The notes: generated by a model not told the origin, from the sequence alone. 57,306 nt of DNA from an uncultured Gammaproteobacteria bacterium (GCA_964517555.1 CAZFEF010000003.1:1-57306); one strand, 5' to 3'. Numbered from the stretch's first letter, positions 56,573-57,306 are shown. Translations and numbers: made by a program.

Positions 56573-56601
56573 TTGACAGCCAGTTGGTTTTACGATATTA
56601 T
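56573..56601 (+). promoter_or_regulatory. Promoter for the tRNA gene
   Basis: TTGACA (56573-56578), 17-nt spacer, TATTAT (56596-56601), about 27 nt before tRNA position 1. Confidence 0.6.
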
Positions 56602-56662
56602 AATTCATGTTTTAAAAATTTAATATATTCCCGGGTAGCGCAGCGGTAGCGCAGTTGACTGT

Positions 56663-57216
56663 GAACGCACTCTCTTATTCTTATGTAACTATTTCGTATG
56701 CAAAAAGAAAAGAGAAAATATGCCGACAGGGCCGAATATATGAAAGCGGCCGTTGACAAAAGACGCAAGAAGATTCGTCAGATGGCGGTTGAACATCAGG
56801 GTGGAAAATGCATGATTTGTGGCTACAATAAATGCTTAAAAGCCCTAGAGTTCCATCATCTAGAATCTGGAAAGAAGGATTTTGGTATTTCTGCTAAAGG
56901 TTATACTAGAAGTTGGAAATCAGTAGCGGAAGAACTAAAAAAATGTATTCTCTTGTGTGCTAATTGTCATCGCGAAGTGCATGAAGGCATTACGCAGCTT
57001 CCTCGAGCAATCGAGGTCGAAAAACAAGGTGAATTGCTGGAAGCCTAAAGTTGAAAAATTATGGTAATCAGCAGCCAAGCCCGCATAGGTATGCGTGGAA
57101 GGTTCAGAGACTATCCCGAAAGGGAGTAGGGCCCCAGAATGGAGCTCGAAGCGCCTTGCACCCCATAATATGGGTGATGATATAGTCCACCCCATTAGGA
57201 AACTTTTGGATAAGTG
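56663..57216 (+). mobile_element. Group I intron (IC3-like core) in the anticodon loop
   Basis: R element GGTTCAGAGACTAT and S element GATATAGTCC, with P7 GACTAT/ATAGTC. P4 TTGCTG/CAGCAG in a Q-like AATCAGCAGCCAAGCC. P3 CAAGG/CCTTG. P2 CCTCGA-GCAA-TCGAGG. Guide ATTA-C-GCAG pairs with the 3' exon TAAT and the 5' exon CTGT (U-G wobble at the splice site). The intron ends in G. Confidence 0.8.
56698..57048 (+). CDS. Intron-encoded HNH homing endonuclease
   Basis: CMICGYNKCLKALEFHHL...LLCANCHREVHEG (CxxC...HH...CxxCH). The ORF lies in the P1 loop and runs through P2-P5 of the intron. Confidence 0.82.
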   Translation: MQKEKRKYADRAEYMKAAVDKRRKKIRQMAVEHQGGKCMICGYNKCLKALEFHHLESGKKDFGISAKGYTRSWKSVAEELKKCILLCANCHREVHEGITQLPRAIEVEKQGELLEA

Positions 57217-57306
57217 TAATCAATTGGTCGTGGGTTCGAATCCCACCCCGGGAGCAAGTCAGAACAACCATTGACTAAAAGTATCGTATCAAACGGTGCT
57301 TTTGTC

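Follow-up and report, generated by a model that had tools for sequence, protein, structure and literature searches.

The interrupted tRNA gene and its predicted ribozyme core

The final ~680 nt of a 57,306-nt stretch of DNA from an uncultured Gammaproteobacteria bacterium (GCA_964517555.1, CAZFEF010000003.1:1-57306; this whole stretch is called the window) contained two halves of a tRNA gene 554 nt apart, with an HNH endonuclease open reading frame (ORF) and a predicted group I ribozyme core lying between them (Table 1). A first reading of the window made from its sequence alone, without database searches (the sequence-only reading), had described a tRNA-Asn(GUU) gene interrupted by a group I intron that carries the HNH ORF. 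Every sequence feature it listed was recovered in place or no more than one base off, including both tRNA halves and the T-arm of the 3' half (GTGGG-TTCGAAT-CCCAC). The analysis points to a functional tRNA-Asn(GUU) gene in which a mobile group I intron is most probably inserted between U35 and U36.

When the two exons (56629-56662 and 57217-57254) were ligated in silico, the resulting 73 nt (72 to the discriminator G73) formed a regular cloverleaf that ARAGORN identified as tRNA-Asn(gtt), with no CCA encoded at the end of the 3' exon. In its default mode, ARAGORN reported zero tRNAs across the 57 kb window. With introns allowed (-i) it reported tRNA-Thr(tgt), i(33,554), with the intron 2 nt upstream of the placement in the sequence-only reading. 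The window alone leaves Asn and Thr undecided, because the Thr solution also has a U before the cut and a G at the end of the intron. The question was addressed with 80 loci from species-representative genomes that carry relatives of the ORF, together with the window; a split tRNA flanked the ORF in 78 of the 80 fetched loci, giving a comparison set of 79 introns including that of the window. ARAGORN -i returned a mixture of Thr, Asn, Tyr or Ser calls on the 78 relatives, the same Thr call for most. The junctions were nevertheless uniform in all loci (...CUGU/intron...G/UAA(Y)C...), with the 5' exon ending in CTGT in 79/79, and a single junction rule gave tRNA-Asn(gtt) for all 79 ligated sequences. 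U1-A72 and G73, which are usual features of bacterial tRNA-Asn, were found in every copy. Since CUGU/...G/UAA was the only solution common to the 79 loci, comparison of the sequences supports tRNA-Asn(GUU) as the host gene and an insertion between anticodon bases 35 and 36, and the Thr call was rejected. The ligated exons thus bear out the predicted host and its spliced anticodon loop, CUGUUAA. The uninterrupted orthologous tRNA of one related locus (L156) scored 71.5 bits on RF00005.

Between the exons, the Rfam family RF00028 matched positions 56937-57209 on the + strand over its full length (model positions 1-253) with 80.5 bits (E 6.6e-19), well over the gathering threshold of 50 bits, and was the sole Rfam family to reach threshold anywhere in the window; scores of family members ranged from 70 to 94 bits. 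A secondary structure, with P7 as a pseudoknot, was drafted from the window sequence and counted on an alignment (A2) of the 79 introns. Paired cells made up 89.3%, compared with 70.1% in shuffles and 32-47% in slid-partner controls, and 0 of 500 shuffles equalled the observed value. Compensatory changes were found at 50 of the 64 proposed pairs. The core elements named in the sequence-only reading (R, S, a 6-bp P7, P3, P4 and a GNRA-capped P2) were all present, P4 in the identical register; P3 (CAAGG/CCTTG) extended to 7 bp. The count lent support individually to P2, P3, P4, P5/P5a, P6, P7.2, P8 and P9. The P7 pairs G57109-A57112 / U57184-C57187 were invariant in 79/79 and the whole helix was 95% paired, so that P7, being nearly invariant, gives no covariation evidence of its own. 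Together, these data support the assignment of the element to the group I introns.

Table 1. Features of the interrupted tRNA-Asn gene, in window coordinates; pairing and covariation values are counted over the 79 introns.
Feature	Coordinates	Strand	Remarks
Promoter-like site, sigma-70 type	56573..56601	+	TTGACA, 17 nt, TATTAT; 11/12 consensus matches
tRNA-Asn 5' exon	56629..56662	+	Acceptor 5' strand, D-arm, anticodon-stem 5' strand, loop C32 U33 G34 U35
Group I intron (supported)	56663..57216	+	554 nt; first base follows U-1, last base is omega-G
HNH endonuclease ORF	56698..57048	+	116 aa + stop; in the P1 loop; last ~20 codons overlap P1', P2, P3, P4 and the P5 5' strand
Candidate P10 strand, AUUA	56989..56992	+	4-bp pairing with 3'-exon UAAU (57217-57220) in the window copy
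Internal guide (P1 3' strand), C-GCAG	56993..56997	+	Pairs with exon 56659-56662 and G+1
P2 hairpin	57001..57016	+	6 bp, GCAA tetraloop; 99.4% paired, compensatory changes in 6/6 pairs
P3 5' strand	57025..57031	+	Pairs with 57152-57158; 94.8% paired, compensatory changes in 4/7 pairs
P4-P5-P5a domain	57035..57073	+	From the RF00028 match and family structure count; P4 57035-40 / 57068-73, P5 57043-45 / 57063-65, P5a 57049-52 / 57057-60 with GAAA loop
P6 and P6a	57074..57103	+	P6 57074-76 / 57101-03, 98.7% paired; P6a 57080-86 / 57091-98, variable (62%)
Element R	57101-57114	+	GGTTCAGAGACTAT
P7 5' strand, GACTAT	57109..57114	+	Part of R; pairs with 57182-57187, P3/P7 pseudoknot
Hairpins P7.1 and P7.2	57115..57147	+	P7.1 57115-17 / 57122-24, GAAA loop; P7.2 57129-35 / 57141-47, 88.7% paired, 7/7 pairs covary
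P3 3' strand	57152..57158	+	Partner of 57025-57031
P8 hairpin	57159..57176	+	5 bp; 90.6% paired, 5/5 pairs covary
Element S	57179-57188	+	GATATAGTCC
P7 3' strand, ATAGTC	57182..57187	+	Part of S; partner of 57109-57114
P9 hairpin	57192..57209	+	GAAA loop; 93.7% paired, 6/7 pairs covary
Omega-G, last intron base	57216	+	G in 79/79
tRNA-Asn 3' exon	57217..57254	+	U36 A37 A38, anticodon-stem 3' strand, variable loop, T-arm, acceptor 3' strand, G73

GCAG at 56994-56997 pairs with the exon bases CUGU (56659-56662), with a wobble between U35 and G56994, and C56993 pairs with the first intron base, G+1 (56663); this guide falls within the HNH reading frame, with the 5' splice site ~330 nt upstream of it. 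GCAGC (56994-56998) was invariant in 79/79 introns and T56999 was kept in at least 90%. The pair between intron position +1 and N1, the base 5' of GCAG, was formed in 75/79 introns, as GC in 51, AU in 20, GU in 3 and CG in 1. Because this pair covaries beside an invariant GCAG, P1, the splice site and the location of the ORF in the P1 loop are confirmed. The guide core GCAG with its U-G wobble and the G that ends the intron, both part of the sequence-only reading, proved to be fixed throughout the family.

The hairpins P7.1 and P7.2, located between P7 and P3', are a feature of subgroup IA; IC3 introns are not known to have them, and the compact core of IC3 was not found here. A subgroup IA label is provisional for the window intron, as seven family members are without these hairpins. 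L9 was GAAA in 62/79 family members, and the P5 internal loop (CCUAAA...UAUGG) resembles the 11-nt GAAA-tetraloop receptor, into which L9 may dock. As in the classical tRNA introns, the GNRA loops L2 and L9 would serve as tertiary contacts, a docking role modeled on that in the Azoarcus structure.

Several members of the family departed from this architecture. P7.1 and P7.2 were missing in L059, L061, L068, L070, L073, L076 and L079, and four of these (L059, L061, L070 and L076) had a differing P3-P4 sequence, TGGGATAAC-GGTG. Among four of the seven hairpin-less members scored on RF00028, L061, L070 and L079 fell under the threshold and L073 passed with 69.7 bits. Extra insertions of 50-100 nt occurred in L030, L033, L045, L048 and L049 (A2 columns 47-104), L040 (120-215) and L066 (395-520), and sit within the region of the P4 5' strand, the P5 loop, or P7.2/P8. 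The same tRNA site thus accommodates introns that differ in structure but whose HNH genes are related.

The flanks of the gene were also inspected. A gap of 27 nt separates the upstream promoter-like TTGACA-17-TATTAT from the 5' end of the tRNA, and this site is likely the promoter of the interrupted gene. Upstream of the tRNA, the window carries dnaG and a gene for an rpoD-type sigma factor. A hairpin followed by a T-rich stretch, 24 nt past the tRNA (57278-57306; AAAGTATCG ... CGGTGCTTT), is truncated by the end of the window; it could be a terminator and is absent from the terminator-scan output.

The HNH gene within the P1 loop

The ORF was matched by PHROG families of HNH endonucleases with E-values down to 1.3e-28 (PHROG 2255, "HNH endonuclease"), and in profile searches against the PDB the McrA nuclease domain and a group II maturase's En domain were matched, both only marginally. 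About 2,960 homologues were found, the best-scoring 120 being 66-94% identical to the window protein. Residues C38xxC41...H53H54...N89/C87xxC90-H91...H95 were invariant in the protein alignment, and all catalytic and zinc-binding residues were intact in the window copy, supporting a small zinc-ribbon HNH nuclease as the predicted product. The PHROG matches, the covariation at the guide and the codon overlap together uphold the earlier proposal of a 116-aa HNH ORF that fills the P1 loop and runs over P2-P5.

The two ends of the reading frame evolve under different constraints. Codons 1-96 had a dN/dS of 0.03-0.08 relative to relatives, with synonymous sites saturated, and codons 97-116 showed low synonymous change (dS 0.07-0.45). 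In the AlphaFold model of the product (mean pLDDT 70), the tail (codons 97-116) was disordered. The protein is under strong purifying selection up to about residue 98, and the tail is conserved as RNA rather than as protein, because codons 97-116 also form P1'-P5, have low dS and are disordered in the model.

The complete CxxC..HH..CxxCH..H motif was present in 68/79 copies. The other 11 failed the motif test; among them, L051 and L077 were clearly truncated, L023, L061, L070, L076 and L080 missed a catalytic-motif residue, which in L061, L070, L076 and L080 was the final histidine, and for two the script obtained no in-frame reading. Truncated and histidine-less HNH genes are, on these alignments, the pattern expected of the gain, decay and loss cycle of homing genes.

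An extended -10 motif, TGnTAnnnT (mostly TGCTATAAT or TGGTATAAT), was observed 7-10 nt before the HNH ATG in 29/77 relatives, including L002-L015 and other Patescibacteria. Such a motif points to a promoter inside the intron and to a nuclease mRNA without a leader.

Distribution, intron-less alleles and known relatives

The element was found in at least 565 GTDB species-level genomes, with hosts among the Patescibacteria, Elusimicrobia, Acidobacteriota (Pyrinomonadaceae, Blastocatellia), Omnitrophota, Nitrospira and others. A metagenome scan also found an uninterrupted anticodon arm on at least 120 contigs. Among these, three loci (L107, L156 and L189) had an uninterrupted tRNA-Asn with rpoD upstream, and their exons did not differ from the exons of several intron-bearing loci; the rpoD neighbor was common to 26 intron-bearing loci. 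The RpoD of L156 was 91% identical to that of the window, and its 3' flank resembled the window 3' flank. The comparison with intron-less alleles that the sequence-only reading had called for thus yielded them, with boundaries exactly as it had predicted.

DNA contigs from two metagenomes (runs X1 and X4) join 56662 straight to 57217, skipping exactly 56663-57216. In X1 these intron-less joint contigs had a depth of 91, compared with 7-11 for the window's own contigs, which is why they are attributed to other community members with near-identical exons. Likewise, depth in X1 was 290-700 over the exons (window 56606-56673 and 57218-57251) compared with 7-11 over the intron and flanks, indicating that many community members share near-identical tRNA-Asn exons and constitute a large pool of potential homing sites. 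Presence or absence of the intron at one locus, with exact boundaries, matches the prediction of homing or of precise loss.

The ~750-nt gap between rpoD and the tRNA in L156 and L189 was considered as the place of a second, interrupted copy; this was rejected, as ARAGORN -i found one tRNA each in L156, L189 and L107, and the gap of L156, the one that was read, is occupied by a small unrelated ORF. This ORF of L156 (~160 aa, 826-1311, between rpoD and tRNA-Asn) is not present in the window, and a gap of similar size (600-760 nt) occurs in L004, L008, L013 and L189. Many deposited records with CAZ... and CAY... accessions (L002, L004, L010, L012, L013, L015 and others) have a Patescibacteria-type rpoD-tRNA-Asn locus and are titled "uncultured Gammaproteobacteria"; these titles on metagenome-assembled genome (MAG) records are probably wrong labels.

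The insertion site is already on record. The compilation of Williams (2020; bioRxiv 10.1101/2020.01.27.920355) recognizes 21 settings, including an "Asn.4Ug" class, and has the intron Pam37.Asn.4Ug in its seed alignment. The window intron lies in tRNA-Asn after the fourth anticodon-loop base, with U at -1 and G at omega, and so joins this catalogued class. The sequence-only reading had considered the site unusual, which holds insofar as it differs from the four classical cases; as a class of its own it had been catalogued. Pam37 and the window intron interrupt the same tRNA at an identical point (CUGU/UAA, loop position 4), and both have U-1 and omega-G. Pam37 also has GCAGCC immediately 5' of its P2, and a hairpin separates its P7 from P3'. 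It matched 49/79 family introns, the best being L067 (E 2.5e-16, with 70.5% identity across 224 nt of the core). For the closest relatives of the window the match was confined to the 3' ~45 nt, and the window was not among the best BLAST matches, the connection with Pam37 being made through the family. Unlike the window intron, with its 116-aa HNH gene in the P1 loop, Pam37 is ~276 nt long and has no ORF. The ORF, the distant guide and the taxonomic spread are not described in the text of Williams (2020).

The classical tRNA introns in Leu(UAA) of cyanobacteria and plastids, Ile(CAU) of Azoarcus and Arg(CCU) of Agrobacterium are, like that of the window, group I introns in the anticodon loop with a U-G wobble. 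However, they are located at Leu.3Ug, Ile2.5Ug and Arg.5Ug in Williams' numbering, compared with position 4 here; their P1 is small and local, and none contains an ORF. The intron in tRNA-fMet of Synechocystis PCC 6803 occupies fMet.2Ug, and its enzyme I-Ssp6803I is a PD-(D/E)XK tetramer as opposed to a small zinc-ribbon HNH protein. The four classical bacterial tRNA introns belong to subgroup IC3, according to Williams (2020). Haugen et al. (2007) listed four interrupted bacterial tRNA genes and one homing enzyme of a tRNA intron, I-Ssp6803I (PD-(D/E)XK), with HNH genes in phage introns only and not in bacterial chromosomal ones. In the tRNAscan-SE 2.0 paper, the introns mentioned are confined to fMet and Ile2, and Lui et al. 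(2021) remarked in passing on group I introns in some tRNAs of circularized genomes (34/36 CPR).

Phage introns encoding I-HmuI, I-BasI, I-TwoI and I-PfoP3I are likewise of group I and carry HNH genes, and the phage enzymes often nick. They differ from the window intron in residing in protein-coding genes and in encoding enzymes of 168-253 aa with extended DNA-binding modules. Phage introns are commonly IA with P7.1/P7.2, IA2 being named for Pf-WMP3 (PMC3428280). Phage homologues of the window protein, such as Felix O1 ORF44, show 45-59% identity to it across ~100 residues and are encoded by free-standing genes within the tRNA clusters of Felix O1-like and other phages; they are not intronic and have an extra N-terminal region (161 aa). 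The HNH gene of Salmonella phage Felix O1 beside "tRNA-Ile" was considered as a sign of a phage tRNA intron and rejected, its locus (L201; NC_005282.1 25030-25515) being without an RF00028 match. In the literature searched, work on tRNA-Asn group I introns consisted of organelle papers and a weak cyanobacterial survey, and no paper was found that describes an HNH gene in the P1 loop, a coding-embedded guide or the breadth of this element.

Predicted splicing and homing

In the scheme proposed here, the splicing steps are built on the sequence and its covariation and their chemistry is taken from the group I family; for transcription and homing, we infer the steps. The tRNA-Asn gene would be transcribed from its own promoter, and CUGU with intron G+1 would pair with C-GCAG some 330 nt downstream to form P1, placing a U-G wobble at the splice site. 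With P3-P9 folded as the catalytic core, an external guanosine would attack after U35; the terminal G57216 would then enter the G-site and the exons would be ligated, restoring the anticodon loop. The 116-aa zinc-ribbon HNH product would most likely cut or nick intron-less tRNA-Asn genes near the anticodon, and repair from an intron-bearing copy would spread the element by homing. Its occurrence in many phyla fits this scheme, because the target is among the most conserved short sequences in bacteria.

Several observations weigh against a splicing and homing intron. No spliced RNA was seen in the six metatranscriptome runs, where 4% of sampled words were present and reads were placed for four runs; matching contigs were 80-90% alike, unspliced, and possibly derived from DNA carry-over. 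In the window copy, P1 is short (5 bp) and P9 has two U-U mismatches. The P10 pairing put forward in the sequence-only reading (AUUA/UAAU) can form in this copy, but no pairing register was conserved among the relatives. On the protein side, Pfam PF01844 scored 21.2 bits on the ORF, just below its cut-off of 21.4, and a Foldseek search with the AlphaFold model returned a top list made up entirely of HNH domains, none of them significant (E > 0.1). The extended -10-like motif before the ORF is degenerate in the window (56684-56692, TATGTAACT). Finally, RpoD and HNH identities to the window correlated (rho 0.59, n=17), so that much of the spread within the Patescibacteria may reflect vertical descent with occasional loss and not active homing. 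With these points taken into account, the probability that the tRNA-Asn(GUU) gene is functional and that a mobile group I intron lies between its U35 and U36 is put at about 0.87.

An unlikely alternative is that the intron is a decaying passenger, in which the ribozyme folds, the HNH protein is inactive for homing, and the element persists vertically in a single-copy essential tRNA gene, from which its loss would need a precise deletion. Such a history would account for the correlated divergence of HNH and RpoD, the degenerate promoter-like motif, the 11/79 copies that fail the HNH motif test, and the existence of an ORF-less Asn.4Ug intron (Pam37). It sits poorly, however, with the low dN/dS at saturated synonymous sites, which indicates that the protein is still selected in the window lineage, with the intact catalytic and zinc-binding residues of the window copy, and with the differences in intron presence between close relatives. 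It is very improbable that the gene is a pseudogene whose intron has lost the ability to splice and whose work is done by a further tRNA-Asn of the same genome: only 57 kb of the genome are visible, with no other tRNA there, and both the lack of spliced RNA and the short P1 and weakened P9 would suit this view, but the cloverleaf of the exons is perfect and shows compensatory changes among the relatives, none of the core helices or invariant core bases is damaged, and a strong promoter-like site is present. A tRNA-Thr(UGU) host (intron 56661-57214, loop CUUGUAA), for which the ARAGORN -i calls in the window and most relatives, the U before the 5' cut and the intron-terminal G would speak, can be set aside, as this solution is impossible in copies whose intron ends in ...CTTG, ...CTCG or ...AGCG, the invariant guide GCAG pairs with CUGU while its neighboring base covaries with the base after CUGU, the U1-A72 and G73 of the gene are established as usual for bacterial tRNA-Asn, uninterrupted orthologues show CTGTTAA, and the DNA joints fall at 56662/57217.

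A wider and distinctly speculative extension is that, in a large part of the Patescibacteria and several other phyla, the sole tRNA-Asn is intron-split and asparagine decoding depends on self-splicing, with a built-in switch whereby two transcripts separately serve the host (tRNA) and the element (nuclease). Ribosomes translating the ORF would unfold the ribozyme, because the guide and P2-P5 are nuclease coding sequence. In many copies, the conserved TGnTATAAT shortly before the start codon of the ORF could yield a leaderless nuclease mRNA that is without the 5' exon and unable to splice.

Established knowledge of group I introns is not overturned by this element, whose value is mainly for annotation and as an example of dual RNA and protein constraint. 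It offers a clean natural case in which one sequence is both ribozyme core and protein-coding, and a compact nuclease whose likely target is the anticodon region of tRNA-Asn. A small HNH homing gene, compiled before only from phage introns, is common in tRNA introns of bacterial chromosomes. Default tRNA finders are silent on such loci and, as the sequence-only reading had anticipated, gene callers give an orphan "hypothetical" or HNH protein; for this reason, hundreds of metagenome-assembled genomes will appear to be without tRNA-Asn. When introns are allowed, ARAGORN assigns the gene wrongly to Thr, Tyr or Ser.

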